A stretch of 64,000 nucleotides of DNA from a phage. The first letter of the stretch is position 1; every line of letters begins with the position of its first letter. Positions 39,976 through 61,701 of this stretch are shown one piece after another. The stretch is taken from sequence record NC_100371.1. One strand, 5' to 3'. The notes beneath the pieces were generated by a model. That model did no database searches. It saw only the letters and a list, made by a program, of their open reading frames with translations, and was not told where the DNA came from. Both the position numbers and the translations under genes were made by a program.

Positions 39976-42048
39976 TTATGAGAAGTCTGGCGGAACAACA
40001 TCTTCTACATACCCTTTCAGAGCAACCTGCCCCATATGCAGAACAGTAGAATCTCTGGCGGTAACAGTGATGCTGTCAGACATTACTTGCGGGTATGCCC
40101 ACACATACTGTTTTACCTCAGGGTATCTATACTCTATGGTTGCCATGTTTCCGCAAATACATCTCCATAAAAATTCTTGGTAATTCCTGGTTGGGTCGTA
40201 GCCATATACCGGAGCAAGCTCTTTGCTAGGAACGAACCCTGCAAGGTATTGTATTTCAGACGGTTTCCAACCTAACTTAACGATAGGTATGTTTACAGAC
40301 TCTTTTGCCTTTTCAATACCTCCCTGCATCACCCAATCGTAGCACTCAGTGCAGAAGAAATCAAGAGCACCTGCTTCCTTTTTATATTGGTCAGCAAGGT
40401 TCAGTTTTTGCGTAAGCTCGGTTTCCATAATAGTGGGGAAAAACAGTAAAGCTGTCATCTGAGCCGATGCAGCGTGTGCTTTTATTGCCTTTGAAATGGC
40501 TGCAATACGAGCGCCAAGCTTACCACGACAAAATGCTACATACTTGTCATAAACACCGCCAGTTTTAGGATCGTCAATAGTCCCAATGTCTAGTGCATAT
40601 TCACCAGTCTCATCATAAAACGCCTGCTTTGTAGGGTAGTCATAAATACAAGGCTTACGAGTATCGGTATTGAACCACCACCACGGTTCACCAATCTGCA
40701 TAATCACTGGCAGGTTGTTTCTCATAGCGGCTGATGCAAAATTCTTAAATACTGCAGTAAGGAAATTCATGCCCTCTTCAATGGTTGGAGACAGGAGGTA
40801 ACTACAAGGCGTATAGCCTGTTTTAGCATAGTTATCGTTCCAGTCTCTCTGGGTCCATTCCAACGGACAGGCATCGCTATAAAGCTCAAAGCTTACAGAC
40901 TGCATAACGTCGAAGTCATGTCGTTTGGCATTGTACATAAAATCATCATGCCATTTATAAGCTGCAGCGTTTAGAGCTCCTGTTTTGTTTATAGACCATT
41001 GGGTTCCTGACCATGTGTAGTCATAATAATGGCTCATACCAACATAATGGTTTATGGTTCCTGTATAGCCCAGACGCTTGATATTGCTCAACACCCTTAA
41101 AGGGGATACGTTCCACATATCGTCATATGCTGTGCAGATCCCAACATCGTGTTCTTTCACCTGAATATTGTTAAGTTGCATCATTTTCCAGCCTGTGTCC
41201 GGCTGAAGAAGATCTAGACGCAACTCACACTCTACATTTTCCGTTCTCGGGTCTGTGCTATTACCTACCCAATCTTTAGGCATAAGTGGTATTAGAATCC
41301 TTCTCACCTGCCGAGGATCAACACCCATCATGTTGTTGTTCTGGTCCATCCCGACGCAGTCCTCGAAATCAATATGAATTTCTGCAACATTCTTATCCTC
41401 TGAGATGCTGACAGCATATTGAGCTAAAGGAACATAGATGATTGTACCATCAACAAGGTCTACAGTCATAATCATCTTTTCAGGGGTGGAGAAGTTGCTG
41501 GCATTGGTTATTGACATTCTGAACCAAAGCTTGGTGTTTCTCATCTCGTAGTGATCATCAAATCCAATGCCGAAATGGTCATACTTGTCAACTGTTTCCC
41601 AAATGCACCCAGCCATGCCCCCATATGTTCTTGACACTAAACGGTTAATACAGCAGTTATTATCCGCAACAATACAGGTGCTTTCAGTCTGCTGTGTGGT
41701 TGTAACCCAGTATCTTGGGTGAAACATTCTCTCCTCAACTGTATCCCAAGATATTCTGTCAAGATTCTCATCTGAAACTATTGTACATTTCGCTCTTTGT
41801 GTTCCAATCATAACCCCTTGGGAGTTTGATGAAAACTCCATAAAGAAGCTCCTTGGCAACCTGTTTGGCAATTTGTCAACAATTTCTACAGGGATCTCGA
41901 TACTGGTTGCCCCAACCGGGATAGTTACATCGCCCTCAACATGATCATAATCCCTACCCGGAACTGCAGTATCCTGAACTGTGCGGTAATGAAACCGTGC
42001 AGCCATTGTAGAGTAATCACGGTAAGGTTTAAAAACAGCTGTTGCCAT
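39976..42048 (-). CDS. baseplate-associated structural protein (possible fibre or glycan-binding/hydrolase)
   Basis: 690 aa; follows gpI-like gene; N-terminal Calx-beta-like segment (RDYDHVEGDVTIPVGATSIEIPVEIVD). Confidence 0.4.
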   Translation of the reverse strand: MATAVFKPYRDYSTMAARFHYRTVQDTAVPGRDYDHVEGDVTIPVGATSIEIPVEIVDKLPNRLPRSFFMEFSSNSQGVMIGTQRAKCTIVSDENLDRISWDTVEERMFHPRYWVTTTQQTESTCIVADNNCCINRLVSRTYGGMAGCIWETVDKYDHFGIGFDDHYEMRNTKLWFRMSITNASNFSTPEKMIMTVDLVDGTIIYVPLAQYAVSISEDKNVAEIHIDFEDCVGMDQNNNMMGVDPRQVRRILIPLMPKDWVGNSTDPRTENVECELRLDLLQPDTGWKMMQLNNIQVKEHDVGICTAYDDMWNVSPLRVLSNIKRLGYTGTINHYVGMSHYYDYTWSGTQWSINKTGALNAAAYKWHDDFMYNAKRHDFDVMQSVSFELYSDACPLEWTQRDWNDNYAKTGYTPCSYLLSPTIEEGMNFLTAVFKNFASAAMRNNLPVIMQIGEPWWWFNTDTRKPCIYDYPTKQAFYDETGEYALDIGTIDDPKTGGVYDKYVAFCRGKLGARIAAISKAIKAHAASAQMTALLFFPTIMETELTQKLNLADQYKKEAGALDFFCTECYDWVMQGGIEKAKESVNIPIVKLGWKPSEIQYLAGFVPSKELAPVYGYDPTRNYQEFLWRCICGNMATIEYRYPEVKQYVWAYPQVMSDSITVTARDSTVLHMGQVALKGYVEDVVPPDFS

Positions 42049-42734
42049 TAACCCTCCTGTCTAGTTGCGTTTACTGTAATACTTTCACAATAAATGGTTG
42101 TAGTGTCCCAATCAAGTCTTACGTCAGGAACATATAACAAAGTAGCCAGCCCACCAACCCCGAACTGATTTTCTTCCCACACTGATCCAAAGCCGAGAGC
42201 TGTAGAGTCCCCTTCAAAACCAAAAGCTTGTCCTTGCGACTCCGTAAGACGCAAATGACAAGGCAATGGCAGCATATCTAAGATTTGGTCGATAGACTGC
42301 AATATGTCAAAGCAAGTTTTTCTAATGTTTATGTCAAACCTGAAATTGTCACCTTTCCACGTATCGAAATTATCTCTTCCGAACAACTGTCGTAAGGTGG
42401 AGATGACATCTTCGCGAGTACCACCTCTTGATGATGCTGCCTGCTGAATAATCAGCGTAGCACGAAAATCCGCGTCTGAAAGACCATTCCTAAGAATACC
42501 AAGTTGATTACCAACTTCGTCAAGGTATCTCCCGCTGGCATTGTTAAGCAATCTTCCTTCAGCCAAGCCTACCAGCATTTTATCAACATTCTCCAACCTT
42601 TTAAGGTACACGGTTAAGAATGTGACTAAATTAACCTTCTCAGCCAGAAAATCCCCAGAGAGGTAATCAAGACCTCCCTGAACAAAATCTGGCAGAGTGT
42701 GGATGTGGTTGACATCCGACTTAATCTCTGCCAT
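42048..42734 (-). CDS. putative baseplate wedge protein (P2 gpI / Mu gp48-like position)
   Basis: 228 aa immediately downstream of the Baseplate_J-like gene with 1-nt overlap; assignment by synteny only. Confidence 0.35.
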   Translation of the reverse strand: MAEIKSDVNHIHTLPDFVQGGLDYLSGDFLAEKVNLVTFLTVYLKRLENVDKMLVGLAEGRLLNNASGRYLDEVGNQLGILRNGLSDADFRATLIIQQAASSRGGTREDVISTLRQLFGRDNFDTWKGDNFRFDINIRKTCFDILQSIDQILDMLPLPCHLRLTESQGQAFGFEGDSTALGFGSVWEENQFGVGGLATLLYVPDVRLDWDTTTIYCESITVNATRQEG

Positions 42735-42745
42735 ATCTCACCGCC

Positions 42746-44236
42746 TTAAATAGTTTGTTGGAAAGTTATATTACTTTCGTCTAGATCAAACACCTCAGTC
42801 ATGTTTGCAACAATATCGTTTGTGGTGTAAGCTTCATCAGAGGCCCCCACAGGTTTGACTTGAATTACAAGTCTGTTAAATCTGCCTATTGACACAGCAG
42901 CCGATGCAGCACCAACCAATTGGATATTGTACAATGTATCTGCAACATCCAGTCCGTTAACAACCTGCAAAAGAGCCTCTACAATGGCATCTTTTTCGGT
43001 TGTAGAAAGCGCAGCACCTGAGTAGGTAATTCTTACATCTAGGCGGTAGGTATTTGCCTTGGAGTAATAAATCCTTTCAGTCTGACCGTCTGATGTGGTA
43101 ATATCGTAGAAGATATTCCCATAAGTTCTGTTTGTGCAAGCTATGGTTTGATACAGCGCCTGACAGATATCCTCTGTTGCACCACCAAACACCACCACTT
43201 GAAACTTATAAGGTGGTATACCTTTCGCATCCGTTTTATCGGTGTTGTTAGAGAACACTCTTACTTTCTCAACACCCTTCACCTCGCTTACAGCGCTAAG
43301 GATTGCAGGACGGGTAGCTTTAGATGTCAACTGTTTAGTGCTGGAAGCTCTTAGGCGATACTCAGAGTCTTTCTCAACATCCCTGCCCTCATTGAATCTT
43401 TCTCGGTTGGTAAGCTTGATAAATCCACTGGGAGTAGGTGACATTGTTGTCACGGTTTCTGCCTCTCTTGACAGCTCACCCGCCTCGTTAGCGATAACAT
43501 CTAGGGTGATAGTTCTTTCCCCTACAATCGGGGATACTCTGAAATCTACCCTGCTATTAAGTCCAACTTGATCAAGATTCGAATTGTACCCTATCCACAA
43601 CGTCCCTGTCAACATATCTATCTGAATTAAATCATCATTCAGCAGGGTTGTATTATCGACAATGAATTGCTTAATCTCGCCGTAAAAGCTTGGCAAATCA
43701 GAAGAGTCCAGAGCCTTATCTGTTAAAACCAGACTTTTTGTTTTGATACTTCCGTCTGTCTGGTTGGTAATTTGAAAGTTGTATTTCCCAATTCTTAGGT
43801 CTGGAGCGTTTATTCTGTGAGCAATAAGATTTCCCGCCACCTGCACATCGTTGCTAAGAACAAAGTTGCCACTGTCCAGCGTATAAGTTTTGGAATCATA
43901 AATCATATTGTACGGCACAGTTGTATTGATTGTCAACTGGCAGGTACCTGATGATTTAGAACGGCCTCTTCGGTAAATACCCTGTCTTCCAAGAAGCTCA
44001 TCCAGGTAAATACCTTCTGCCCCATATAGCGTCTGTGATGCGTATACAGATGCTGCCATAAGAATAAGTTGATATTCTCGCTCGTTGAAAATAGTGGTCA
44101 GCTTATCTGCAACTGAGTTACTTTGTACGTTGAAGTTTTCGCCAAAAGCACGGATCAGGCTTTGCTTAGTTTCAACGATTAGGTCATTTAGGGTTGGTAT
44201 AACGAAACCAGCCTCTGTCAATCCATACTTAGCCAC
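42746..44236 (-). CDS. baseplate wedge protein, Baseplate_J-like (P2 gpJ / Mu gp47 family)
   Basis: 496 aa; N-terminal MAKYGLTEAGFVIPTLNDLIVETKQSLIRAFGENF typical of Baseplate_J proteins. Confidence 0.55.
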   Translation of the reverse strand: MAKYGLTEAGFVIPTLNDLIVETKQSLIRAFGENFNVQSNSVADKLTTIFNEREYQLILMAASVYASQTLYGAEGIYLDELLGRQGIYRRGRSKSSGTCQLTINTTVPYNMIYDSKTYTLDSGNFVLSNDVQVAGNLIAHRINAPDLRIGKYNFQITNQTDGSIKTKSLVLTDKALDSSDLPSFYGEIKQFIVDNTTLLNDDLIQIDMLTGTLWIGYNSNLDQVGLNSRVDFRVSPIVGERTITLDVIANEAGELSREAETVTTMSPTPSGFIKLTNRERFNEGRDVEKDSEYRLRASSTKQLTSKATRPAILSAVSEVKGVEKVRVFSNNTDKTDAKGIPPYKFQVVVFGGATEDICQALYQTIACTNRTYGNIFYDITTSDGQTERIYYSKANTYRLDVRITYSGAALSTTEKDAIVEALLQVVNGLDVADTLYNIQLVGAASAAVSIGRFNRLVIQVKPVGASDEAYTTNDIVANMTEVFDLDESNITFQQTI

Positions 44237-44269
44237 GTCACTCCTCCGGTATGAAAATCTCTACAAGGT

Positions 44270-44331
44270 ATTTTACCAAATTTTGTAACAATAGTCAATC
44301 TGAGCATAAAAATAAACCCCGCCGAAGCGGG
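44270..44331 (-). promoter_or_regulatory. intrinsic terminator (UUCG-loop hairpin) followed by extended -10 promoter
   Basis: Minus strand: CCCCGC-TTCG-GCGGGG (44316-44331) + U-rich tract, then TTGACT (44297-44292), 16-nt spacer, TGG-TAAAAT (-10 at 44275-44270). Confidence 0.55.
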
Positions 44332-44341
44332 GCTTTAAAGG

Positions 44342-47300
44342 TTAGTCGTGAGACTCGTTCCAAGGTCCCTGGAAGCTTGAGTTAGAACGACTAACGATCA
44401 CAGTGGGACAGGAGATTGTGACACCTGTCACGCTAGACGTTGACCACGGTGTGTAAATCTCGATAACAATGTCTATAGTTTGTTCACCCAGACCTGTTAT
44501 CCCTACCGCACACATGCCGTTGTTGTCGTTAAAATACTTCTTGCCAGCAAGGATCTGATGACCAGCTATCCATGCATTCAGCTGGGAGCTGGCAAGAGTA
44601 CCATTCAGTTTAAAGAAGAATGTTACGTTCTTACCCTGACCTGAAACGTTATCTACGTATCTCCACCTCCAACGGCAAACCCTTTGCTGGGAGTTATATA
44701 CTGGAGCACAATCTCCGTAAGTCCTGTGTGCAACGATTGCACCTTCGAACTGGTTAGCACGGATAACGGAAGCTTCTACACGTCCACGGAATGTACCTCC
44801 TGTTGCATCTATGGTCCCTCTAAAGCTACCGTTGTTGGCATAAACATCCCCACGGAAGGTACCACTGGTGGCGTTAACTGCCCCTGTGAAGTTACCTGCA
44901 CTAGCGTTAATGTTACCTTTCACCCACACATCCATAAACTGGGCGTGCCCGTTCTTGTTAATATACCAACCGTATTTGTGGTACCCATTGCCATCGTAGT
45001 TGTTTGACGAAATTTCTTGCGCGATCTTGGCAGAAGAGATCGTGCCGTTCTCTATAAAAGCGTCTTTCAAGAACGCTTGGTTGTTCTTGATTGCGAAAGC
45101 AAGGGTTGCTGTCCCATTGCCCGGGTTGTATACCGCAAAGTTGTTTGCGCTAACCATGAAATATGACTGAACTTGGCCTCCAGAGCCTTCCATGCCTAAC
45201 TGGATACCTGCCACATACTTATTCCCTGCGGAGTCTACCTGTATTTTTGTGCCCCATTGAGCATTTACTTTGCCCTCTAAGTCGGTCACAGCCTTAGATG
45301 TTGTAGCCACTGCAGCTCTGAGCTCTGACACATCCCCAACATCATCAATGATCTCCTGCTTAGCAACAGCAAGTTCTTGACGAATAGCTGACGCTGTGCC
45401 GTTAATAAGATCCACGGTTGCTTTGTTGGTATCGGAAATTGTAGCATCCAGAGCTGTCTTTGTGGAGGTCAGTTTACCATCTAAATCCTTAATCGCCTGT
45501 TTGTTGGTAGAAATCTCCCCACGTGCAGAGGTTATCTGCTCTGACAGTGCAGAGGTTTTCTGATTCAACAAATCGGTGGTGGCCTTGTTGGTATTGGCAA
45601 TCAAGGTATTGAGATCAGTTTTTGCGGTAGTTATCTTACCATCAAGGGTGGTATAGTTTTTAGATACCGTCGCGTTTGTCTGACTAATCTTTTGATCCAG
45701 GGTCTCAGAGGTCTTGTTCAAAAGATCCACTGTCGCTTTGTTGGTGCTCAGGATGCTTGCATCAAGTTCCGTTCTCTGGGTGTTGATCTTGCCATCCAGA
45801 GTTTTATCTCCGGCAAGGTATCCGCTCTCCACACCATCTATTTGTTCTACCAACTCCCCTTTGGCTGCAACCAATTTCTCGTCTAAAGCCTCTGTCTTTT
45901 TGTTCAGAAGATCAGTGGTTGCTTTATTGGTTGTCTCGATCAGGGATGCCAGTCTTCCACTTTCAGTGTTCAGATCGTTGGTGAACTTGTTCTGTGCAGC
46001 AACAAGTTTCCTATCCAGAGCTGTGATATTTCCATTGACATCCTCAAACTTCTGAGTTGTCTCTGTAACTACCGCACCTATCCTATCTCCAAGTTGTTGG
46101 AATGCCTCATCTACCCTTCCGTCCATGTACTTGTTAAGCTCTGTGACACGATTTTCAACCTCCTCGATAGAGGAATCTAAAGTGCTCATCAACTCTTTAT
46201 AAGTTTCTGTCTTTTTAAATTCAGCATCTATCTGAGGCATCAAATCTTCAATAGAGGTGTAGCAGCGTGCAGCGCATTCTACAAACTGAGAACTACCAAA
46301 AGCGTTTGTGGTTCGAATATACCAATAATAAATCTTATCGTTCTGCAGACCTTCAGATGTCCAAGTTGAACCAACACCCATACGGGTGGCTTTTGAAGTA
46401 ACGGTTGCATCACTTGTGTCCGGCAACCTTGTCATACCAGATGTCCAAAAATCATACTGGGTGCTTACACTTGCTAAGTCCCTGCTGTGCGGAATCAAGG
46501 TGATAGCAAAGTATCCCTGCTTAACTTCTACAGAAACAGGAGCTTCAGGTGCTTGAATGTTGAACTCGCAGTAGGCTTCTGGAGATACACCACCTTTATA
46601 AGATGTTGCAACCACGGTTGCTGTGTATGACCCTTTGGTCAATCCTTCTACGCGGACAAACTGCTCGACTGTTTGTGCTGTCCAAATAATCTCTCCGTTC
46701 TTTCTTACCTGCACAATATTTTGAGCATAAGTTCCAACGTTGTCCCAAGCCAAAACACCATGAGTTACTTCCCCAGCTTGAAGAACAGAGTATCTGAAGT
46801 TTTGCGGTTGAGCTACGCCGGACGGGGATATCGGAATATCCACATCTCCAGAATCCGGAAGTTGCCCTGTGGCATCATTCCACTCTTTAGCATCTTGACG
46901 GAGTTTTACCTTGACACCGCCCTTTTTGGTGAACTCCCATTCAAGAACCCTCATTTCTTGGCCCACTATACCAATACTTGGAAGGTCCATCGTAACGTAA
47001 CGCCCAGGCTTAAATTTAAAACCCCGCATATTGCAGGTTACTTCAATAATCCTGCCAGCTCTGGCACGTCTTAAGAATATTGCGGAAACACGCTGAGCCT
47101 GATAAGGACTGGTAACAAAACGATAATCTATATCAATTATCTTTCTTTCTCCGTCCTTCTCTACCCATTCAGGTACGAACACCGACGGGAAGTCTGTTTC
47201 AGAATACCCTTTGGTTGGACTGGTGAATCTTCCGGTTATTGTGTTTGATCTTTTGTCGAAGGAGGCTTCAGGATAGATCTTAACCTCACCGCAAACACAG

Positions 47301-48181: not shown

Positions 48182-48618
48182 TAATACCTCCAGACATCAA
48201 CAACGATAGAATCTTTCATGTCGAACATAAAGATCCCTTTATCACCTTTCGCCCAAATCTGGTTGTTCCAGAACACACCAGCGGTTAGCCCGTTCAGACC
48301 TTTGAAAATAACAATATCACCACGCTGAACCTGTTTAGGAGTATCCAGTCGAGTCAAAAAGAGATCAAAAATAGTAGGCAGGTGTGTGGTTTTGAAACGA
48401 AGCATGCACCATCTCTTGCTTTCCAACTCTGTTTTATATGTTCCTTCAAAGTTAGAAATAAAATCTGTTCCGTATTGGGCATCAACACACTTAGCCGCAA
48501 AGGTGCAGCAATCGTGGAATCCCCATTCAAACGGGACGGTGGCTTCTTCGTCAAACACTTTCCACAATCTTTCTTGCCAGTCTACTAAACGAGGGTGTGT
48601 GCTCATTAAACCTCCCAA
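48181..48618 (-). CDS. tail assembly protein, NlpC/P60-like (lambda gpK-like position)
   Basis: 145 aa directly upstream of gpJ-like gene (start/stop overlap); HDCCTF and GDIVIF resemble a possibly degenerate NlpC/P60 fold. Confidence 0.35.
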   Translation of the reverse strand: MGGLMSTHPRLVDWQERLWKVFDEEATVPFEWGFHDCCTFAAKCVDAQYGTDFISNFEGTYKTELESKRWCMLRFKTTHLPTIFDLFLTRLDTPKQVQRGDIVIFKGLNGLTAGVFWNNQIWAKGDKGIFMFDMKDSIVVDVWRY

Positions 48619-49172
48619 ATGATCGGGCGGCTTGCCACCTGATCCACATATTTAAAAAATCTGTCATTATCGTTTCTTGAGCTATGGCTTTCCTCTGTGT
48701 ATCGATAAGGAAAACCTCTTAACCAGCTGTTGAAGATGGAAGAGATGGATATAGACAAAGCACTATTCTCCCCTGTCTGAATAGCCATGTCTGTTATAAG
48801 GCCGTCAAACAAGCCATTAGTTGTAACAGGTAAACCATTCTCCATAGCGGTGATATATAACGTGGCACGGCAACCAGAATACTCCGTCTTCAGCAGATCA
48901 CCTACATACTTGGGATCAAACCCGTTCAATGTTGCTACCACAGATCCGAAGTTGGTGGCATCTTTCTCAGACACAGCAGTCAATGTTGCTGATCCACCTA
49001 TTCCTATAAAATGTTGCCCCTCAATCACCACAACACCAGTGCCTGAGCACACCCTGACAGTTCCTGTTGGCAGCTCTAGCTTTGCAGCAATTAAGATCTC
49101 AACACTATCAAGCTCTAGCTTTTCAAGAAATAAATTATCTAATGGCGCTCTTATCATCTTAGAAATCCTCAA
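48606..49172 (-). CDS. putative minor tail protein (lambda gpL-like position)
   Basis: 188 aa; synteny upstream of K-like and J-like genes. Confidence 0.3.
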   Translation of the reverse strand: MRISKMIRAPLDNLFLEKLELDSVEILIAAKLELPTGTVRVCSGTGVVVIEGQHFIGIGGSATLTAVSEKDATNFGSVVATLNGFDPKYVGDLLKTEYSGCRATLYITAMENGLPVTTNGLFDGLITDMAIQTGENSALSISISSIFNSWLRGFPYRYTEESHSSRNDNDRFFKYVDQVASRPIIWEV

Positions 49173-49749: not shown

Positions 49750-49780
49750 TATGCCTCCAGGTTAAACAATTATGATAGTT

Positions 49781-49840
49781 ATTTTACCAGATTTTAAGTT
49801 AATACGCAATACAAACAAAAAGCCCTCGCCGAAGCGAGGG
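49781..49840 (-). promoter_or_regulatory. intrinsic terminator (UUCG-loop hairpin) followed by extended -10 promoter-like motif
   Basis: Minus strand: CCCTCGC-TTCG-GCGAGGG (49823-49840) + CUUUUUGUUUG, then TTGCGT (49809-49804), 17-nt spacer, TGG-TAAAAT (-10 at 49786-49781). Confidence 0.5.
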
Positions 49841-49854
49841 CAATACTTTATACT

Positions 49855-54626: not shown

Positions 54627-54640
54627 TCTTTCTCCTGAAA

Positions 54641-54657: not shown

Positions 54658-54663
54658 TATATG

Positions 54664-57261
54664 TTAAAGGTACAATCCACGGTATTGAGCATAAAGACCC
54701 AGACCGCGAAGGATTTCGCCAGAGTGATAGCCAACCGGATCAGAAACTGCCCAGCAGCCGTTTAAAATATTATCCCCGTTAATGAAGTGGTGCTTTTGCA
54801 GTAACTTCACACAGGCCTCTACAACAATATCTATTTGAGGTATTGTCTCTGAATACCCGCAAAGACCTAGCCAGCAGCAACCTGCAAGCCATTCACCTAC
54901 CACCCACATCCTGTCACCTCTGTCTTGATAAGAGTATCCACCAGAGGTGTTAAAGTCTGTAGGCAAATTTCCTGAATGGGATGACTGGAATCTGTTGAGG
55001 AACCATGCCCATTTCTGGCAGAACAGGAATAGTCTTTCATCAACAGGCTCTTTATGTTTCTTGAGCTCATATATTGTGCGGCACGCAGCAACAAAAGATC
55101 TTGACTGGAGTTTAGAGTTATCTACCATCTCCCACCAACCAGTCAACCCTTCATTACCTCTCTGCCATACATAACGTGAGGCAACTGGACCCTCTGTCTT
55201 AAATGTATTGTTATACCAGACTTGAGAGTCATACAGAAAGCCTATTGTATTTGACAATCTATGGCGGTCTATGTTTTCTGCGCCCATGCAGTAGACTGCT
55301 GGGTATTGCATACCAGGGTAGGGCCAATTTGGCCTTTCCTCTAAGAGATAATTTTCCTTATCTATCACCTTTCCGGCAGGGAACACACCCGGCGTGTGCC
55401 TGTATGCACCTTGCTTGTAGTTTCTGACATAACAATCGCCAACCTTAGCGGTCGATTCTGTCTTGCTTGCCATCCATACACTAAACCAAATTAGGTAAGC
55501 ATCTCTATCTGCAACATAAAATTGCGGTAGCGTGTTGACGCAATACAGATCAAACAAGCCATTGCCTATCTGCCTGTCGCTCAGACTGAAATCTACAGAG
55601 GTGATCCCCTTGGTGTTAGCAAAGAAAGGTTTAATCTCCTCTTCGGTGTGATGAGGTTGTGTAGGGTCTAGTTTAAAATCTCCCAGAGTAAGAGTTTCTG
55701 TTATCCATTGTCCATTAGTGGCATATAGATCAGCATACCATAACCAACGGTCTTTGTCAAGAAATTTGACCCTTACCATCTCATCATCTGATCGATAAGT
55801 CACTGAGTTTAAAGAAATCTCTCTTCCAAAATTGAAAGTTACTTTGCCTTTTACTATATTGCAACGGGTGAAGTTGTCAGAGTGGTTGTAAATGTCGGTA
55901 TCATACTGCATACTAACACTAGCGCCACCGCTTACGGCAATGTTTTCCTCTTTTGGCAAGAGATATGGGTTACCGTCTTTACCAACCACCTCTACAAAAT
56001 CAGTAACCTTGGCAACTGTTTCTGTTACCTCTGCCCCTCCAAAAGGGACACCTATTCTGTACTGTTTTTTGTTATTGTTGCCATCATTAAGGATGAAATG
56101 TGGCTGGAACAGAACCCCTTCTCCTCCGAAATTCATAACAATTTCAGCATCTCTGCCTATTTTGTATGTAGTCCCTTTTTGGATTATTTCGCAAGGCTGG
56201 CGTGCGTTCATTCTAAAATTGATATATCCGTCACTATCCCTACTTATGACAGGTACTGTTCCTGCAACTAGACAAGTGCCATCTGTGAACGGGGCCTTAA
56301 TCAACGTGGTCTTTCTGAACAGCTTGTCGTAGGCATTTATATCACTAAAATTAAGCAACTTATTGTAAGACTGCTTAAACGCGGTGTAATACTTTTCCTC
56401 ACCTGTCAGGGTGTAGAGTTGATAACAAGCGTCACACCACATCTCTTCCCCATCTAACTCTGGGGCTTGATTGTCTGCAACCACGTTTATAGGATTTACA
56501 ATTACAGGGGATCCAGCAGGTATCACCGATCCGCCCTGCTCTTGAGGCAATCTCACACAATAGGTAACCTTGTGGTTGCCTGTAACACCCTTATCTTGCA
56601 GTTGGATTGTGCCGAACTCTGCAGACGTATGACCACTGTCGGCTATGCTACCGTTGGCCCAATAGCGGTTACCATCCCATGCTATATACCACTCAACCCA
56701 CCAACTTAATCCGGAAGTTGTCCAATTAGGATTAGCATCTGTGCCGCCGTAAACATCAGAGTCTACAGTGTTTCTTCCTAAAACACCGTTATACGCCTGA
56801 AAAGCCTTGTCCAAGTATTCTCCCCATGTCGGGGATCCTGCTGGTATTTTTCCTCTACCTTTGTTAAAAGACACAACCACATCTTTAAACCCACCATGTG
56901 ATGGAACTCCATCTGTGGATAACGGGTAGTGGGACAATCTTTGCATTTTACTTTCTACTGCATATACGCCCAGAAGATGACTGTTGTAGGCTTCCCAAGC
57001 CTCTTTGGCCCTGTCTAGATAAAAATCGCTTTTTGATGCCCTGTATGCCTCAATGTATCCCAGAATCAACACAGCTTGGGACTCATGCATTGCCCAATCA
57101 TTATTTATCTTACTCCCTGACCAACCTGACGCTATAAGTCCATCCTGGTTTACCAGTTTGTTCTGTGTAGGGAGATTGGTAATACCTGTGTTGTTATCGA
57201 GGCACTTCCTGTGCCCCTCGATCATCTGAAATACGTTATCAATGTTGTGTTGAATACGCAT
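54664..57261 (-). CDS. virion structural protein, putative tailspike / glycan-degrading enzyme
   Basis: 865 aa in fibre cluster; aromatic-rich sequence faintly reminiscent of alpha/alpha-toroid glycosidases. Confidence 0.35.
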   Translation of the reverse strand: MRIQHNIDNVFQMIEGHRKCLDNNTGITNLPTQNKLVNQDGLIASGWSGSKINNDWAMHESQAVLILGYIEAYRASKSDFYLDRAKEAWEAYNSHLLGVYAVESKMQRLSHYPLSTDGVPSHGGFKDVVVSFNKGRGKIPAGSPTWGEYLDKAFQAYNGVLGRNTVDSDVYGGTDANPNWTTSGLSWWVEWYIAWDGNRYWANGSIADSGHTSAEFGTIQLQDKGVTGNHKVTYCVRLPQEQGGSVIPAGSPVIVNPINVVADNQAPELDGEEMWCDACYQLYTLTGEEKYYTAFKQSYNKLLNFSDINAYDKLFRKTTLIKAPFTDGTCLVAGTVPVISRDSDGYINFRMNARQPCEIIQKGTTYKIGRDAEIVMNFGGEGVLFQPHFILNDGNNNKKQYRIGVPFGGAEVTETVAKVTDFVEVVGKDGNPYLLPKEENIAVSGGASVSMQYDTDIYNHSDNFTRCNIVKGKVTFNFGREISLNSVTYRSDDEMVRVKFLDKDRWLWYADLYATNGQWITETLTLGDFKLDPTQPHHTEEEIKPFFANTKGITSVDFSLSDRQIGNGLFDLYCVNTLPQFYVADRDAYLIWFSVWMASKTESTAKVGDCYVRNYKQGAYRHTPGVFPAGKVIDKENYLLEERPNWPYPGMQYPAVYCMGAENIDRHRLSNTIGFLYDSQVWYNNTFKTEGPVASRYVWQRGNEGLTGWWEMVDNSKLQSRSFVAACRTIYELKKHKEPVDERLFLFCQKWAWFLNRFQSSHSGNLPTDFNTSGGYSYQDRGDRMWVVGEWLAGCCWLGLCGYSETIPQIDIVVEACVKLLQKHHFINGDNILNGCWAVSDPVGYHSGEILRGLGLYAQYRGLYL

Positions 57262-57262
57262 C

Positions 57263-57931
57263 TTAGATAGCTCCTGCGATGATCAGTGCCCCGTACCAAG
57301 TTAGTCCATTATCATATGTTTCCAACTTGAAAATGTCTGTTGCACCAGCTGTAAATGTTAGGATAGGATCTCTTCCGTAGGCCCATTTAACATTGTCAGG
57401 CCAATAAACTTTGTTACCACCAGAGGTCTGCGTTATGCATACAGTTATAGTTCTTGCCACTCCGTCGAGCCCTTCTGTTTGATTTTCAAAAGAGATTGTG
57501 GTGTTTGAAGTGAGCCGAACTTTAAACGTGTCTGCAACGTCAAGATCCATGTCAAGTTGACCACCAATAGAGCCGTAATCAACTATCCTACCTGAAGAAG
57601 TTGCAGCAAGCTCTCCAAAAACAGACCATGCTTTTGCAGACACACCTCCGGCACCCTCTACAGTGGAATCTGGGAGGATTATTTTAGGATAATCTCCATT
57701 CCATGTGTAGTAGCGCTTAGTTTCCGGATCATAAGCAAAATCCTTCTTGCTCTTAAGATAACCGCCCTCTGTGAAATAAACTATTTTAGTAATGCTAAGA
57801 TCATTGACAACATCATCAATCTTAGCCTTTCTTGTCCCGTCAGTCTGGTTGACAACCAAGAAGTCATCACTCAAGACTGTTTCTGCATCTTCAAGATCTG
57901 GGATTGGTATTGTAGGATAAGCTACAGCCAT
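57263..57931 (-). CDS. tail fibre adaptor-like protein sharing N-terminal domain with the 1479-aa fibre
   Basis: 222 aa; N-terminus LEDAETVLSDDFLVVNQTDGTRKAKIDDVVNDL aligns with the 1479-aa protein N-terminus LPATTAVTEDDYLVVQQPDLTRRVKIGDVVHVD. Confidence 0.5.
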   Translation of the reverse strand: MAVAYPTIPIPDLEDAETVLSDDFLVVNQTDGTRKAKIDDVVNDLSITKIVYFTEGGYLKSKKDFAYDPETKRYYTWNGDYPKIILPDSTVEGAGGVSAKAWSVFGELAATSSGRIVDYGSIGGQLDMDLDVADTFKVRLTSNTTISFENQTEGLDGVARTITVCITQTSGGNKVYWPDNVKWAYGRDPILTFTAGATDIFKLETYDNGLTWYGALIIAGAI

Positions 57932-57940
57932 GATTTCTCC

Positions 57941-58657
57941 TTAGTTAACATCAATAGCACGACCAGACTGGTTGGCAATAGCCTCATCATTAGAGGTAGC
58001 AATAACACCAGAATATTCGCGCTCATCTGGAGCAAGCGTCCAGGTATTGCGGTTAATGGTTTGTTCTGCATCAGTCATCAGCAGATCTTTATCCTGAGTC
58101 AACAGAGAACCTACAGGGATCGGGTTTTCCATCTCAGGACCAGCATACTGGTTCCACCACGTAGCATCCCCAGTTCTAGGCAATCTGAAATTGATCAGGT
58201 AGTACAGTTTATTAGCCCACTTAATCCAACCTTCATCATCACAAAGAGAGGTTGCCCCGTCATCAGGCTGTGGGTAGGTAAACTGATCAAGACCTACGAA
58301 AGCCAGCCTTACAATCTCGTTCTCCTTGGTAACAACCTCAAAGAACGCTTGGTATGTTCTCGATCTTCGATCCATAGTAGACTGGAAGTTTATGATGTTT
58401 AGCACATCTGGCTCTTGTCTTGCCACTTCCATAATCTTGTTATCAAGAACAGTCTTCATGACCTTCTTACTGAGAAAGTCCATATAAGGGAAACCAAACA
58501 ACTCATCAAAGTACCAGCTCCCCTTCCATGTATTAAACCTCATCCACAGGCGCTGGCGCAGACTTACTTGGTTTGAATCTATCAACTCAAGACCTTTGTC
58601 TATCGCCAAATCACCTGTCTGTGGGTCCATCAATATATCACTATAAAGCGTAGCCAT
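57941..58657 (-). CDS. putative baseplate protein (gp25/W-like or Mu gp46-like)
   Basis: 238 aa; N-terminal LAIDKGLELIDSNQVSLRQRLWMRFNTWKGSWYFDELFGFPY resembles small baseplate wedge proteins. Confidence 0.4.
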   Translation of the reverse strand: MATLYSDILMDPQTGDLAIDKGLELIDSNQVSLRQRLWMRFNTWKGSWYFDELFGFPYMDFLSKKVMKTVLDNKIMEVARQEPDVLNIINFQSTMDRRSRTYQAFFEVVTKENEIVRLAFVGLDQFTYPQPDDGATSLCDDEGWIKWANKLYYLINFRLPRTGDATWWNQYAGPEMENPIPVGSLLTQDKDLLMTDAEQTINRNTWTLAPDEREYSGVIATSNDEAIANQSGRAIDVN

Positions 58658-58669
58658 TCAAGCCCTCTA

Positions 58670-59347
58670 TTAGTGCGGTCCACTTGTCTCGCCATCAGGG
58701 CAAGAGTGGGTATGACCTTTATATTCTGCATAGAATGAGTCCAAATCCACACCAGCAGCCGTTATAATTCTACCTGATGGGTCTATTGTGGCACCATTCA
58801 TTCTGATATTTCCATCCACAGCAGCTCGTAAATTGGCAGCCCCGTTGGTGAAAGAAAACTCCCCGCTACTGTCGCACCGTAATGTTCCACCAGGTGTTTG
58901 AAGCTCAAAATCACCAGAAGGTGTCAGCTTAAAATAAACCCTATCATTCCATAACTCCACATTATCAGGATCGATCTGTAAAGCGTTAGAGTCTGAATGA
59001 ACAGAGGTTATTGCCCACCCTGGAAACAGGCCGTGAGTTTGTTGATCATCATTATTGTTTTCATTTCTCTCTGAAAACTGCAATCCTACAACATCACCAG
59101 CCTTAATAGGAAGTGTTAACCTTGCCTTCCCGCTGTTTGCAGACATCACCTGGATTGGCACATCATAGATAAGAGGGTATCTCTCAACATCCCCGTCATC
59201 AAACGTGGTTTCAGCTATTGGCTGCACTGCTGCGGAGGGGATACTGTAATCTACACTGACAACTCTGGCCCTGATACTGGTGTGGTAGTCCCTCATTATT
59301 TTTTCTATAAAGGATCTTACAGCAGCATCTTTCCTATTAATTGCCAT
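58670..59347 (-). CDS. baseplate spike protein (P2 gpV / Mu gp45-like)
   Basis: 225 aa; C-terminal YKGHTHSCPDGETSGPH resembles the spike-apex HxH motif. Confidence 0.5.
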   Translation of the reverse strand: MAINRKDAAVRSFIEKIMRDYHTSIRARVVSVDYSIPSAAVQPIAETTFDDGDVERYPLIYDVPIQVMSANSGKARLTLPIKAGDVVGLQFSERNENNNDDQQTHGLFPGWAITSVHSDSNALQIDPDNVELWNDRVYFKLTPSGDFELQTPGGTLRCDSSGEFSFTNGAANLRAAVDGNIRMNGATIDPSGRIITAAGVDLDSFYAEYKGHTHSCPDGETSGPH

Positions 59348-60348
59348 TATACCTCCTCAGTTTTGTCAACAACTCCACCCACTGTTTCCCCAAGGCCAAG
59401 CTCTGTAGTGTAATCACCACCTTCTATGGTGCCCTTATGATGGACTGTGATCACCTTATAGAAGCCTGTGTATTGCCTACTTTTAAGATAAATGGTGGAC
59501 TCTGGGAGGATAGCCCCGTTAAGACATGTGGTTACAGTAAGACCAACATCCTCTCTCGGGTTTTTCTTTTTCTTCTTACTTGTGCCACCTTTCGCAGCAG
59601 CTTTAGCTTTTCGTTTTTTAGCAGGTTCTGGGTTTTTAGGTGTGGGTGAACCGTGCATCCCAGACTCTGCACTTATTTCAAACACAGAGTCCTTGAACCT
59701 TTTTCCAACCTTGGTCCAATATAAAGCCCCGTCCTGAACGCTAAATGTTGAGTTTGTCAGCCTTGCAAACCTGCGCAGGTTCTCTGCGGTGTTTCCGGAG
59801 AAAGCCATAGAGTATTGCAAAGTTTGGTTTCCAAAACCAACAACCCTCCCTTTTGGCAAGTTCATATCCTTCAGCAGGTCATTAAGCACAGAGTTCAGAG
59901 GTGTACCTTTCTGATAAGATCTTGTGCTTTGGCACTTAATGATGTTCTCAGTGCCATCCCCAAAGATGAACTTAGTTTTTCTGGTAGGGCCTTCCCATCT
60001 GTCCTCAACAAACTCTACAGTTCCGGAGAATATCAACTGGTTCTCATTATCATAGCCAGCCTCAAACATAACTGCAAGAGCATCAGCTTGATGCATATCT
60101 AGATAGTTAACTGTATCGTCAGACAGGTTGTAAACTGTCACATAGCCTTTGTTTGGCTCTTTGGTATTGTCCTTTTGTATGTCAAACTCTATATTGGCAG
60201 CACCAGTGTCCGAGCTAATCTCATAAACTCCGGAATCACTTTCTCCTTTCTTTTCAACAGATTTCGGGATATTGGTTTTTGATTTACCACCATGCTCTAC
60301 AGGGCGACCAAATAACAATCGCCATGTTCTACGTCTGTACTCTGCCAT
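59347..60348 (-). CDS. putative baseplate hub protein with internal Lys-rich segment
   Basis: 333 aa directly upstream of spike gene (start/stop overlap); KKRKAKAAAKGGTSKKKKKNP stretch; assignment by position. Confidence 0.35.
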   Translation of the reverse strand: MAEYRRRTWRLLFGRPVEHGGKSKTNIPKSVEKKGESDSGVYEISSDTGAANIEFDIQKDNTKEPNKGYVTVYNLSDDTVNYLDMHQADALAVMFEAGYDNENQLIFSGTVEFVEDRWEGPTRKTKFIFGDGTENIIKCQSTRSYQKGTPLNSVLNDLLKDMNLPKGRVVGFGNQTLQYSMAFSGNTAENLRRFARLTNSTFSVQDGALYWTKVGKRFKDSVFEISAESGMHGSPTPKNPEPAKKRKAKAAAKGGTSKKKKKNPREDVGLTVTTCLNGAILPESTIYLKSRQYTGFYKVITVHHKGTIEGGDYTTELGLGETVGGVVDKTEEV

Positions 60349-60728
60349 TATTCTAACCCTTGCTGTTCCTTGTAAAGATCAACTGGAGTACCGTATACAA
60401 GTTGCAACTCAGATCTTGCTCCAAGGTTGTATCTTCCAACTCTCCCCCAATATTGATCGTCTTTAAACGACAGCGCCATCAATCTACCTTTCGGTAAATC
60501 GTCTCTGTAATGCAGTCCGTCTAGAATATCTTGACAAGCTGTTACTTTTCTGGTTACTAAAGGGCTGTCACCTACCGGACCAAGAGATAACCACCAGGAC
60601 TCATCCCTCTCATTCCATTGCATACGCATTTCATACGTCTCATTGTCTAAAACAACACGCATGGTTTGATCAGGAAAGCCGTCAATGTCCCACACAAAGG
60701 TGATTATGCACCAATCTTTAAGCTCCAT
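60348..60728 (-). CDS. putative small baseplate/tail protein (126 aa)
   Basis: Co-oriented tightly packed ORF between the TMP-proximal gene and hub. Confidence 0.35.
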   Translation of the reverse strand: MELKDWCIITFVWDIDGFPDQTMRVVLDNETYEMRMQWNERDESWWLSLGPVGDSPLVTRKVTACQDILDGLHYRDDLPKGRLMALSFKDDQYWGRVGRYNLGARSELQLVYGTPVDLYKEQQGLE

Positions 60729-60739
60729 TGCACGCCCCC

Positions 60740-61651
60740 TTATTTTCCGTTAACTTTGTTGTAGTTTCCCTGCTCAGATGGGACTATGGTAGAAGGTCTT
60801 CCATATTCCTGATAGTACCAATCCGCAGCAGATTGGGTGACACCGTTTTCATCTGTCCACATCATAGATTTGTATGGCTGCCACTCTTCTGCGGCATTTG
60901 TGGATGCAGTGTCTGCAAATGCCCCTGTGTCCCTCTTGTTACCTACGTTACTGCCATTCTTACAGTCGTTGACAGCACCTTTTTGCTGGGTCTTGCCTAC
61001 TTTCTTAGGGTTGCTGTATACAGTTGCATTAACAACCTTGTTCAAGTAGAATGTGCGGAACTCTGTAAGTTCTACATCAAACACCATCGCAGCACCTTCA
61101 CCAACAGACTTGTTGGCAGAAAGGCTGGTTATGATGTAGTTCTCAAGGAGTCTTTCCTCGGTAACCAAAGAAACCAACTGGCGCTTATTAATGATCTCAG
61201 TCAAAGCCTCCAGTGCAGCGCCTGGTCGCATAGATGCTGCAGGATTTTTAGAGTCAGTATTCCTGTCAATGTAGTTTTGCTCATAGATTATATGTGGTGA
61301 TGTATTTACCCTACCAGTAAAAGAAAATACACCATCTTTAATTACAGCGTGGTCTGACAGAGTAGATTTATCTTCCACCGCAAACCCAGTTTTATCAACA
61401 GAATGTTTGAAAGAGTAGTTCTCAACCTGATCGAAGATAATGGCAAGATCGTTAGTAAAGTTTTTACCCTTCATCTCCATATTGCGACCACCATAGTTAA
61501 GACCGCTGACAAACATAGTGTACTTTACATCGCTTTCAGTTTGCTGCTCTGCCTTTTCAGCCTTTGGAGATTTAACCTCTTGAGGCTTGTACAGGTCTTT
61601 TTCATCAACTATATTGCTTGGCATAACCTCTCCAGGACACTCCGATACCAT
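60740..61651 (-). CDS. putative tail protein following tape measure (distal tail / DNA-circulation-like position)
   Basis: 303 aa; first gene after TMP; start may be at a downstream ATG (MPSNIV...). Confidence 0.35.
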   Translation of the reverse strand: MVSECPGEVMPSNIVDEKDLYKPQEVKSPKAEKAEQQTESDVKYTMFVSGLNYGGRNMEMKGKNFTNDLAIIFDQVENYSFKHSVDKTGFAVEDKSTLSDHAVIKDGVFSFTGRVNTSPHIIYEQNYIDRNTDSKNPAASMRPGAALEALTEIINKRQLVSLVTEERLLENYIITSLSANKSVGEGAAMVFDVELTEFRTFYLNKVVNATVYSNPKKVGKTQQKGAVNDCKNGSNVGNKRDTGAFADTASTNAAEEWQPYKSMMWTDENGVTQSAADWYYQEYGRPSTIVPSEQGNYNKVNGK

Positions 61652-61701
61652 CTAGATATTGTATCATAAAATAGCCGTTTTTACAACACCGATAAAATAA
61701 A

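Follow-up and report, generated by a model that had tools for sequence, protein, structure and literature searches.

How does a contractile-tailed phage come to carry a lambda J-like tail-tip protein beside its own hub and spike, and what could that protein do there? The question was raised by a preliminary description of 64,000 nucleotides of phage DNA (NC_100371.1; this whole stretch is the window below), which took the presence of a hub/spike pair and a J-like Tal in one tail module to be unusual. The window comes from a Vequintavirus, that is, an rV5-like E. coli myophage, and more than 100 published genomes are 92-97% identical to it at the nucleotide level. All open reading frames named in that description are present, have the sizes given there and lie on the minus strand, as do all features given with coordinates below. 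The tape measure protein gene (61731..64000) is 97-98% identical to those of EmilHeitz and HMD-6; the gene runs past the end of the window, which removes its 5′ part, and reads as 729 aa here against the 775 aa annotated in EmilHeitz. The mixed set of baseplate and tail-tip genes is rare among sequenced phages, yet the sequence is not new, as over 100 deposited genomes of Vequintavirus contain it. The cassette genes analyzed here are already in the databases, some labelled "tip attachment protein J", and in the literature we found no paper describing the whole cassette, its origin or its virion location.

The contractile-tail baseplate

The baseplate genes of the locus are those of an ordinary contractile tail of phi92/phiTE type and code for tube initiator, plug, hub, spike, sheath initiator and two wedge proteins. 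Judged by HMMs and homology, these proteins (303, 126, 333, 225, 238, 496 and 228 aa) are orthologous to those of the phi92 and phiTE baseplates solved by cryo-EM (phi92 structure, PMC13450770; further solved-baseplate source, PMC11972413). Between the tape measure and tube initiator genes are an intrinsic terminator (61701-61718) and an extended -10 promoter-like site (together 61658..61718). The tube initiator (303 aa, 60740..61651; Pfam Dit_like, E = 2.5e-22) is the myophage's own Dit-like ring; it is gp135 in phi92 (PMC13450770), and its homologues in Seunavirus, Certrevirus and phi92-like phages are encoded at the same position. The baseplate plug or spacer (126 aa, 60348..60728) matches Pam3_gp18 of Pfam (E = 2.9e-18) and is 39% identical to the phi92-like gp136 homologue. 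The hub (333 aa, 59347..60348) belongs to the baseplate hub family phrog_196 (E = 2.9e-83), with 36-59% identity to the hubs of the sister genera and 36% to the phi92-like gp137 homologue. The central spike (225 aa, 58670..59347) is recognised by the phi92 spike N-domain family of Pfam (E = 1.4e-9); its apex motif, HTH, lies at residues 212-214. As the phi92 spike binds iron via HxH motifs (PMC13450770), the present spike, with an HxH apex as in phi92, is by analogy putatively iron-tipped.

The sheath initiator (238 aa, 57941..58657) is assigned to the T4 gp25/P2 gpW class by PDB matches to the sheath initiator of phiTE (E = 5e-61), phi92 gp139 (E = 3e-16) and Pam3 gp21 (E = 0.003). The wedge protein of the Baseplate_J/T4 gp6 class (496 aa, 42746..44236) scores 36.6 bits against PF04865 (cut-off 21.1), falls into the wedge family phrog_6 and is 32-61% identical to its counterparts in the sister genera. 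The second wedge protein (228 aa, 42048..42734; phrog_4056 baseplate protein, E = 1e-101) has 29-62% identity to the product of the gene after Baseplate_J in these genera and 29% to the phi92-like gp146 homologue; by position and partnership it is of the P2 gpI/T4 gp7 class. HMMs and phi92/phiTE homology thus agree with the earlier assignment of the hub, the spike with its HxH motif and the gp25/W-like, Baseplate_J-like and gpI-like proteins, and all the refuting tests proposed in that description were run without moving any protein, the 333-, 225-, 238- and 496-aa proteins included, to another role. The set had been labelled P2/Mu-like; the baseplate is best described as of the phi92/phiTE/Pam3 type, within the simple class of contractile baseplates to which P2 and Mu also belong.

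The tail-tip cassette

The locus further contains a complete siphophage tail-tip set, consisting of a distal tail protein of the pb9 family, a hub protein with the gpL/g13 fold, a DUF6950 protein and a J/pb3-type tip protein. The distal tail protein (196 aa, 49159..49749) matches phrog_1302 over its full length (E = 5e-49), a family that also takes in T5 pb9 (E = 3e-63) and the first gene after the tape measure gene of SeppeHuegi (E = 6e-71); identity to this first gene in siphophage loci is 30-40%, and structure prediction yielded no usable fold (pLDDT 35). The hub protein (188 aa, 48606..49172) has the fold of lambda gpL, RcGTA g13 and the T5 pb3 N-terminus. Its AF2 model (pLDDT 90.4) retrieves siphophage tip proteins from the PDB with Foldseek, namely T5 pb3 (E = 9e-7), JBD30, lambda gpL (E = 8e-5), GTA (E = 3e-4), T1 and Chi. 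Six of 104 relatives match Pfam PF09931. The protein is without conserved cysteines and therefore without the gpL-type Fe-S site. The DUF6950 protein (145 aa, 48181..48618; PF22262, E = 1e-33) occupies the position of lambda K and GTA g14 and has 32-46% identity to the syntenic siphophage gene product. The small genes upstream of J, previously called K/L-like, are accordingly three and not two; the L-like part holds for the fold of the 188-aa protein, whereas the 145-aa protein shows no detectable homology to lambda K and is K-like by position only. Sequence comparison with lambda M, L and K detects nothing for the cassette proteins, and an equivalent of gpI is also absent.

The fourth gene (44342..48181) codes for the 1279-aa protein that corresponds to rV5 gp37. 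It has a hub region (1 to about 470), Ig/FN3 domains (about 490-650), a proline-free coiled coil of four repeats of about 52-55 aa (about 645-955), the Phage_Tail_Tip domain (957-1097) and a unique C-terminus of about 180 aa. The claim of lambda J-likeness stands, with matches to Phage_Tail_Tip (E = 2.4e-38), Ig_J_second (E = 1.4e-30) and lambda J in the PDB (E = 3.6e-28); a profile of the N-terminal region aligns with residues 164-482 of lambda J (E = 1e-30) and 266-849 of T5 pb3 (E = 6e-29). Of the HMMs named at the outset, Baseplate_J was found, but Pfam Phage-tail_3 stayed under its threshold on the 1279-aa sequence alone (13 vs 23 bits). Membership in the J/Tal family is confirmed over the whole length. 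A myophage anchor domain is recognisable neither in the J protein nor in the three small cassette proteins.

The cassette is, as predicted from its flanks, a separate late transcription unit at a fibre-gene hot-spot between the sheath initiator and wedge genes. Both flanks combine a strong terminator with a promoter-like site containing TGGTAAAATA. Upstream (49769..49841), an intrinsic terminator with TTCG loop and T-run (49822-49841) is followed by an extended -10 promoter-like site (TGGTAAAATA at 49780-49789); downstream (44270..44335), the terminator (44314-44335) precedes a site TTGACT-17-TAAAAT (TGGTAAAATA at 44269-44278) which probably drives the wedge genes.

Neighbouring fibre genes

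At least six large fibre or spike genes had been counted; at least eight are present (865, 1479, 690, 346, 348, 581, 616 and 1244 aa). A 222-aa fibre adaptor (57263..57931) has a Tail_spike_N domain (PF18668, E = 3e-10) and homologues in Seunavirus and phi92-like phages, and the 865-aa lateral fibre or tailspike (54664..57261) is 33-34% identical to fibres encoded at the same position in these phages. The 1479-aa lateral fibre (50187..54626) is chimeric by Pfam and by similarity to SeppeHuegi: a myophage-type Tail_spike_N anchor is joined to a Seuratvirus-type shaft (aa 183-967) and a lectin-like C-terminus. It shares 34% identity over 607 aa with the SeppeHuegi lateral tail fibre, whose N-terminus is phage_tail_N instead. 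The siphophage anchor thus appears to have been swapped for a myophage anchor, which would be a precedent for re-anchoring within the same locus. In siphophage contigs of Queuovirinae-like type, the lateral fibre gene is followed by a small gene to which the adjacent 110-aa gene (49855..50187) is related (L021 15814-16092: 34% identity, E = 2e-11). The sister myophages compared (Seunavirus, Certrevirus, phi92-like) have no counterpart of the 110-aa gene. Outside the cassette, the N4-gp65-type fibre (690 aa, 39976..42048; Pfam TIM-barrel_NCTSP, E = 7e-80) has 42% identical homologues in phi92-like phages; a homologous domain of a Vequintavirus/phi92-like tail fibre protein was proposed to be an NGR glycan binder (10.64898/2026.04.02.716166).

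Origin and conservation of the cassette

The nearest relatives of the cassette are the tail tips of the E. coli Queuovirinae siphophages (Seuratvirus, Nonagvirus). In SeppeHuegi the gene order after the tape measure gene is identical, the sizes are similar (194/194/144/1040 aa vs 196/188/145/1279 aa), the PHROG and Pfam families are equal and identity is 33, 40, 44 and 54% for genes 1 to 4, the last value holding for aa 48-758 of the 1279-aa protein. The four-gene arrangement also occurs in a Proteus prophage with lambda-type tape measure protein and gpT chaperone and, in matching order, on 77 IMG/VR viral contigs. In 67 of 78 scored siphophage-type loci (the IMG/VR contigs together with those of the Proteus prophage and SeppeHuegi) an open reading frame with a median of 1026 aa lies directly upstream; no hub, spike, sheath-initiator or wedge homologue was found in these loci. 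Among the matches listed from the phage collection, those below 60% identity are all in genomes of 29-83 kb. Conversely, the core genes are present at 26-70% identity in the loci of Seunavirus, Certrevirus and phi92-like phages, where the cassette gave no match; among the sister myophage genera examined the cassette is confined to Vequintavirus. With this complete cassette, its Seuratvirus synteny and its absence from sister genera, the mosaic is confirmed and is sharper than the preliminary description proposed.

All four cassette genes are under strong purifying selection. Their dN/dS values (0.006-0.095) are in the range of the core baseplate genes, and in about 117 deposited genomes the open reading frames are intact, with 95-100% conservation at the protein level (dS 0.12-0.83, dN/dS at most 0.1). 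Mass spectrometry of purified rV5 virions detected gp37 with four peptides and five spectra, one being a high-confidence tryptic peptide. Of the nine fibres annotated in the near-identical phages Bas49 and Bas54, cryo-EM resolved only three, and the J-like protein was not located (PMC12143355).

Proposed role and alternatives

We suggest that the cassette was acquired by horizontal transfer from a co-infecting siphophage, and the same kind of donor may have supplied the shaft of the 1479-aa fibre and its small partner gene. The four proteins would most likely self-assemble as in the donor: the hub protein could cap a J trimer, possibly together with the ring of the distal tail protein, to give a tip without a tube. 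The lambda-J-type tip domain and a novel C-terminal domain for receptor binding would be kept at a distance from the particle by the long coiled coil. Such a complex may be an extra receptor-binding fibre of a multivalent "Swiss-army-knife" adsorption apparatus; it would be attached to the baseplate or the fibre network away from the axis and would not conduct the DNA. An accessory receptor-binding fibre mounted off-axis is the most likely role. Taken as a whole, a captured siphophage tip that self-assembles into such a fibre is the best explanation and, in our judgement, somewhat favoured to be correct. The off-axis placement is argued from the conservation of hub and spike with relatives without cassette and with phi92, in which both occupy the axis. 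The "central fibre" of the preliminary description stands as a family name rather than as a statement of location; an orthodox hub and spike already take the tail axis.

It is also conceivable, though we consider it rather unlikely, that the J trimer alone is a structural fibre and that the 196-, 188- and 145-aa proteins are mainly assembly factors or present in traces, with no Dit-hub-Tal complex in the virion. Lambda K functions during assembly and is no major constituent of the virion. The ring of a distal tail protein normally sits on a tail tube; a second tube gene is absent, which would leave the Dit ring with nothing to dock on. The rV5 analysis found gp37 and not gp38-40 among the detected proteins, but this proteome is very shallow (19 proteins, the sheath with only 15 spectra). 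Moreover, the constraint on the three small genes equals that on structural baseplate genes, and in solved siphophage tips both Dit and the gpL-fold protein are structural parts with defined stoichiometry.

Two further placements seem to us improbable to an equal degree. The complex could be axial, a true central fibre stacked beneath or around hub and spike in a composite tip, as the homologous proteins are axial in every solved siphophage, e.g., lambda, T5 and T1, and Dit-type rings bind tube-like rings, of which the myophage tube initiator and hub have the domains. However, the spike retains its membrane-piercing HxH apex; hub, spike, plug and wedges have orthologues in phi92, Seunavirus and Certrevirus, all without the cassette, and are under the same constraint; and the phi92 axis ends distally at the spike tip (PMC13450770). 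Alternatively, the complex could be mounted at the neck, the collar or a capsid vertex, or could act inside the cell, for instance in superinfection or adsorption interference. It is missing from the baseplate-proximal maps of Bas49 and Bas54, and one other annotated fibre of the BASEL set was suggested to be at the neck (PMC12143355). On the other hand, averaging routinely loses flexible fibres, and the cassette lies amid late baseplate and fibre operons whose promoter-terminator punctuation it shares. The idea of a functionless remnant, decaying or selfish, which the foreign origin of the cassette and three sister genera managing without it might suggest, is already close to refuted by the intact and constrained reading frames of the cassette, its own predicted promoter and terminator and the gp37 peptides from virions.

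Comparison with known systems

In phi92 (Justusliebigvirus) and phiTE (Certrevirus) the tube initiator, plug or spacer, hub, spike, sheath initiator and both wedge proteins are orthologous to ours and the gene order is identical; unlike the present phage, both lack the Dit-hub-DUF6950-J cassette. Fibre genes are likewise inserted between sheath initiator and wedge genes in phi92-like phages and Seunavirus.

The same four-gene cassette is found in the Queuovirinae (Seuratvirus SeppeHuegi and Seurat; Nonagvirus 9g and JenP1) and related enterobacterial prophages, and these siphophages also have the lateral-fibre shaft and its small downstream gene in common with our phage. There, the tape measure gene of a non-contractile tail is immediately followed by the cassette, whose products make up the DNA-conducting tip, whereas here the cassette sits between myophage fibre and wedge genes without cognate tape measure or tube gene, and the J protein has a longer coiled coil (about 300 aa, four repeats) and different C-terminal residues (about 180). 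The hub, Ig and tip-fibre domains of J match lambda J (M-L-K-I-J, PDB 8IYK) and T5 pb3 (pb9-pb3, 7ZHJ), T5 pb9 is in the same PHROG as the 196-aa protein, and the fold of the 188-aa protein is that of lambda gpL, the GTA hub (RcGTA g12-g15, 6TBA), T1 (9L9P) and the pb3 N-terminus. In the solved siphophage tips these proteins are the end of the tube, a role that is impossible here in the usual way.

Branched multi-tailspike organelles, such as the phi92 "Swiss army knife" and those of CBA120 and G7C, co-display several receptor-binding proteins via Tail_spike_N-type adaptors, as here. While those phages add tailspikes or fibres, one of the units added by the present phage is a whole multi-protein siphophage tip assembly.

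Results

More than 100 deposited genomes of Vequintavirus, the rV5-like E. coli myophages, share 92–97% nucleotide identity with the 19.6-kb region; B9-1, HMD-6, EmilHeitz/Bas49 and O157 typing phage 4 are among them. Virions of rV5 carry contractile tails (PMC3606486). [quoted passage not shown] Sheath and tube genes, in this case outside the window, are placed in the same genome by way of EmilHeitz (93% identical), where they are found immediately upstream of the TMP gene.

In the direction of transcription the TMP gene is followed by genes for a tube initiator (303 aa; Pfam Dit_like, E = 2.5e-22), a plug (126 aa; Pam3_gp18, E = 2.9e-18), the hub (333 aa; phrog_196, E = 2.9e-83), the spike (225 aa; Pfam N-domain of the phi92 spike, E = 1.4e-9), the sheath initiator (238 aa; PDB matches to the phiTE sheath initiator, E = 5e-61, phi92 gp139, E = 3e-16, and Pam3 gp21), the Baseplate_J wedge (496 aa; PF04865 at 36.6 bits, where the cut-off is 21.1, and phrog_6) and a second wedge protein (228 aa; phrog_4056). 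This is the full set of the simple contractile-tail baseplate class (phi92/phiTE/Pam3/P2-Mu), encoded downstream of the TMP in one operon. The preliminary description had proposed the hub, the gp25/W-class and the Baseplate_J proteins as well as a gpV-like spike with an HxH apex, and these calls are upheld; the apex is H-T-H at residues 212–214. Its gpI-like 228-aa protein likewise stands as a baseplate component. Each of the baseplate proteins has a positional homologue in the sister myophage genera, with 55–70% identity in SPLA5a (Seunavirus), 41–57% in CR3 (Certrevirus) and 26–39% in the phi92-like PATM. Cryo-EM of phi92 (PMC13450770) and phiTE (PMC11972413) assigned the same roles to these proteins.

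The locus further contains a cassette of four genes which code for proteins of 196, 188, 145 and 1279 aa. The largest of them (44342–48181, -) had been called lambda J-like, and this holds across its whole length. Domain searches gave Ig_J_second (E = 1.4e-30), Phage_Tail_Tip (E = 2.4e-38) and, from NCBIfam, lambda_TipJ (E = 8.5e-44), with Ig_J below threshold (24 versus 29 bits). In the PDB it matches lambda J (E = 3.6e-28), covering lambda J 666–850 and the C-terminal fragments. For the N-terminal 470 residues Pfam Phage-tail_3 remained below threshold (13 versus 23 bits), and the same family (PF13550) is recorded in relatives which are 40–52% identical. A profile built from 26 relatives of the N-terminal region recovers lambda J 164–482 (E = 1e-30) and T5 pb3 266–849 (E = 6e-29), the single-sequence search against pb3 giving E = 8e-4. 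The protein thus has both the hub-domain homology and the succession of Ig/FN3 domains and a C-terminal tail-tip fibre domain which characterize the J/pb3 family. Residues ~645–955 (~300 aa) are free of proline, which is consistent with a long coiled coil. Within this stretch, at residues ~735–955, are four repeats of ~52–55 aa with the motif ...TNKAT(T/V)DL(L/I)N...; they are seen at the protein level only, as the J gene has no tandem repeats at the DNA level. For the final ~180 residues no match was found.

The 196-aa protein matches phrog_1302 ("distal tail protein") over its full length (E = 5e-49), and so does pb9, the distal tail protein of T5 (E = 3e-63). It is thus a member of a sequence family with a structurally characterized distal tail protein (Dit). 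An AlphaFold2 (AF2) model from an alignment of just five near-identical sequences was unusable (pLDDT 35).

For the 188-aa protein Pfam gives no match, and word-indexed homologue searches returned near-identical proteins only, as they did for the 196-aa protein. Exhaustive searching with HMMER recovered 638 relatives. The AF2 model built from 104 relatives has a pLDDT of 90.4, and with Foldseek this model matches the N-terminus of T5 pb3 (E = 9e-7, TMq 0.60) and lambda gpL (E = 8e-5, TMq 0.58), followed by the tip proteins of RcGTA (E = 3e-4), T1, JBD30, Chi and R4C. The predicted fold is hence that of solved tip hub proteins. PF09931, for which the Pfam description reads "Baseplate hub protein, N-terminal attachment domain", is matched by six of the 104 relatives. 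In lambda gpL an Fe-S centre is bound by a C-terminal cysteine cluster. The 188-aa family alignments contain no invariant cysteine and no gpL-type cluster, and hhalign of the family profile against the single lambda gpL sequence was negative. The protein belongs by its model to the gpL fold class and is not a gpL orthologue. The term L-like for a small gene before J thus applies to the fold class.

For the K-like small gene the place before J is confirmed. The 145-aa protein (48181–48618, -) matches Pfam DUF6950 alone (E = 1e-33), and hhalign against lambda K gave a probability of 9% over 17 columns. Because no homology to lambda K, a protein with MPN and NlpC/P60 domains, is detectable, the protein is K-like by position only. 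In the DUF6950 family W-G-x-x-D-C-C-x-F-A is invariant and a histidine never is. The motif together with an R-G-D strand is reminiscent of NlpC/P60-type cysteine peptidases. As the invariant histidine is missing, the "cell wall hydrolase" of GenBank may in the window protein be an inactive or non-canonical enzyme.

With all three small proteins, sequence searches of the PDB yielded nothing significant and neither did profile searches, which were empty for the 196- and 145-aa proteins. The hhalign comparisons of the family profiles with the single sequences of lambda M, L and K and of T5 pb9 (E = 0.083 for the 196-aa family) were negative or marginal. We read these alignments as low sensitivity against single-sequence templates and not as counter-evidence to a shared fold.

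Before the J gene the genes for Dit, hub protein and DUF6950 protein follow each other exactly in the siphophage order, and the sole TMP gene lies 12 kb upstream. This myophage TMP shows no similarity to siphophage TMPs. In the siphophage SeppeHuegi/Bas24 (Seuratvirus) the genes after the TMP code for proteins of 194, 194, 144 and 1040 aa, which are 33, 40, 44 and 54% identical to the cassette proteins. A pattern scan of IMG/VR gave 80 loci. The 77 which are not from Vequintavirus lie on contigs of 5–84 kb and keep the order Dit, hub protein, DUF6950, J, and none of them has, within 9 kb, any gene homologous to those for the hub, spike, sheath initiator or wedge of the myophage. We scored 78 siphophage-type loci, comprising these IMG/VR contigs, a Proteus mirabilis prophage and SeppeHuegi, and 67 of them have an ORF directly upstream, with a median length of 1026 aa. 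Dit is the first gene after the TMP in these siphophage relatives; here a pair of fibre genes and a terminator come before the 196-aa gene.

In the Seunavirus, Certrevirus and phi92-like loci which we examined, none of the cassette genes has a match. CR3 has its wedge genes directly after the sheath initiator, and in SPLA5a and PATM nothing but adaptor and tailspike genes lies in between. In the phage collection, matches to the J N-terminus or to the 188-aa protein fall into two groups, those from Vequintavirus with 95% identity or more and those with less than 60%; the rows below 60% that were sampled for the 188-aa protein all come from genomes of 29–83 kb. Three of the four cassette proteins are closest to Queuovirinae, and E. 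coli is a host common to both groups.

The cassette is flanked by two intergenic regions of 105 nt, each of which contains a GC-rich terminator with a TTCG loop and a T-run as well as an RBS and an extended -10-like promoter site. The extended -10-like 10-mer TGGTAAAATA occurs exactly twice in the 64 kb, at 44269–44278 and 49780–49789 (-), that is, in both flanks. Related TG(A/G)TA(A/C)AATA sites are placed behind terminators in front of the tube initiator gene of this genome; CR3 and SPLA5a have such sites, with the same terminator-promoter punctuation, in front of the wedge gene. The pattern appears to be the way in which this phage group punctuates its late genes with promoters and terminators. 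In comparison with EmilHeitz, HMD-6 and one IMG/VR contig (dS 0.12–0.83), dN/dS of the four cassette genes is 0.006–0.095, the same range as for the tube initiator, the spike and the wedges. The cassette is a discrete, maintained unit. Peptides of rV5 gp37, the counterpart of the J-like protein, were detected in purified virions, four of them in a shallow proteome of 19 proteins, among which the counterparts of the small proteins, gp38–40, are not found (PMC3606486); this proteome is too shallow for an estimate of copy number.

A further siphophage-derived fibre is the 1479-aa protein (50187–54626, -), whose residues 183–967 are collinear with the Seuratvirus lateral tail fibre at 34% identity. 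The N-terminal anchor is Tail_spike_N here versus phage_tail_N in the siphophage fibre, and the C-terminus is lectin-like, where the siphophage counterpart has a Peptidase_S74 chaperone. The fibre is a chimera of a myophage anchor, a Seuratvirus lateral-fibre shaft and a lectin-like C-terminus. The 110-aa gene directly downstream (49855–50187, -) resembles a small gene of related siphophage contigs, in which it comes after the gene for the lateral fibre. The loci compared with this pair are 15321–18401 in L010 and 15814–16092 in the Queuovirinae-like siphophage contig L021. In the other fibres of the window we found no phage_tail_N anchor able to dock on the J protein.

We rejected a 690-aa TIM-barrel protein (39976–42048, -) as part of the imported set, since homologues with 42% identity are present in phi92-like myophages and N4-like phages. 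Besides a Calx-beta domain it has two domains of the N4 gp65 "non-contractile tail sheath" family, the N-terminal and the TIM-barrel one. According to the proposal of a recent preprint, Vequintavirus and phi92-like phages bind the NGR glycan with a tail fibre protein that has a homologous domain (10.64898/2026.04.02.716166).

Other fibre genes of the window are also of note. Two paralogous short tail fibre genes (36864–37910 and 38923–39963, -; 348 and 346 aa, about 43% identical) enclose a gene for a Caudo_TAP fibre-assembly chaperone (194 aa; 38324–38908, -) and a 104-aa gene. The 1877-aa "lateral tail fiber with intimin domain" of EmilHeitz (rV5 gp27) is present as proteins of 616 and 1244 aa, separated by an in-frame amber codon (32884–32937, -, between the ORFs 32935–34785 and 29149–32883; ACC TAG GAT versus ACT TAC GAT in EmilHeitz). 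The codon may reflect an error of sequencing, a genuine nonsense mutation or a stop that is suppressed; the window contains no tRNA genes.

Discussion

Where on the virion could the J complex be located? The hub and the spike are orthologous to the axis pair of phi92 and to the corresponding proteins of relatives without the cassette, and therefore the J complex is unlikely to be the axial tip. Indirect evidence suggests that hub and spike occupy the tail axis. The cassette is located where relatives have their tailspike genes, and its locus holds another siphophage-derived fibre, the 1479-aa protein, with a visibly swapped anchor. We infer that an accessory off-axis receptor-binding assembly is the most economical reading. 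A J trimer together with the hub protein, possibly also with a Dit ring, would form this assembly, which would be displayed off the axis as one part of a multivalent adsorption apparatus. A myophage-type anchor domain for docking the J complex was not found. In the cryo-EM study of Bas49 and Bas54 three of nine annotated fibres were located, and a Vequintavirinae fibre resembling central tail fibres was noted (PMC12143355).

More speculatively, and in our view with less than even probability, the whole siphophage tip machine of Dit ring, hub protein and J trimer might have become a tube-less side fibre, present in several copies at the periphery of the contractile baseplate. A tip which serves as DNA conduit would then have turned into a pure adhesin, possibly receptor-sensing, and the Dit ring would be re-used as docking adaptor. 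If true, this would be the first case in which an entire tail-tip assembly, and not a single fibre gene, was shifted between tail types and works in a new structural context.

Parts of this picture have been on record. GenBank labels the J gene "tip attachment protein J", "central tail fiber J" or "lateral tail fiber with fibronectin type III domain", and matches of gp37 to COG4733 and to gp27-like proteins were already given in the rV5 paper (PMC3606486). In the literature we found no paper that recognizes the four genes as a cassette, traces them to siphophages, notes that they are confined to a single genus or locates their products on the virion. We also note that about 18–21 "Campylobacter phage" records (GenBank MG065644–MG065662; C2, C7, C9, C11, C15, A142, A147, D# and others) with the stated host C. 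jejuni are 93–99% identical to E. coli Vequintaviruses; these are probably mislabelled or contaminant isolates.

Of the coliphages with a broad host range, the rV5-like phages belong to those isolated most often. Cocktails for therapy and biocontrol make use of them, and the assignment of their genes to fibres is still unclear (PMC8594841, PMC12143355). For structural work the cassette offers a concrete model to be fitted into unassigned density of the existing Bas49 and Bas54 maps, EMD-51868 and EMD-51869. The lambda-J-type tip with its novel C-terminal domain might confer an extra receptor specificity. The cassette also lends itself naturally to engineering, as it forms a transcription unit of its own.

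In summary, the finding belongs to the broader category of receptor-binding module exchange between phages. One "fibre" of these myophages proves to be a complete siphophage tip assembly, showing that such modules can cross tail architectures as multi-gene assemblies. The Proteus mirabilis prophage carries the same string of genes together with a lambda-type TMP and a gpT chaperone, and it has no sheath gene.
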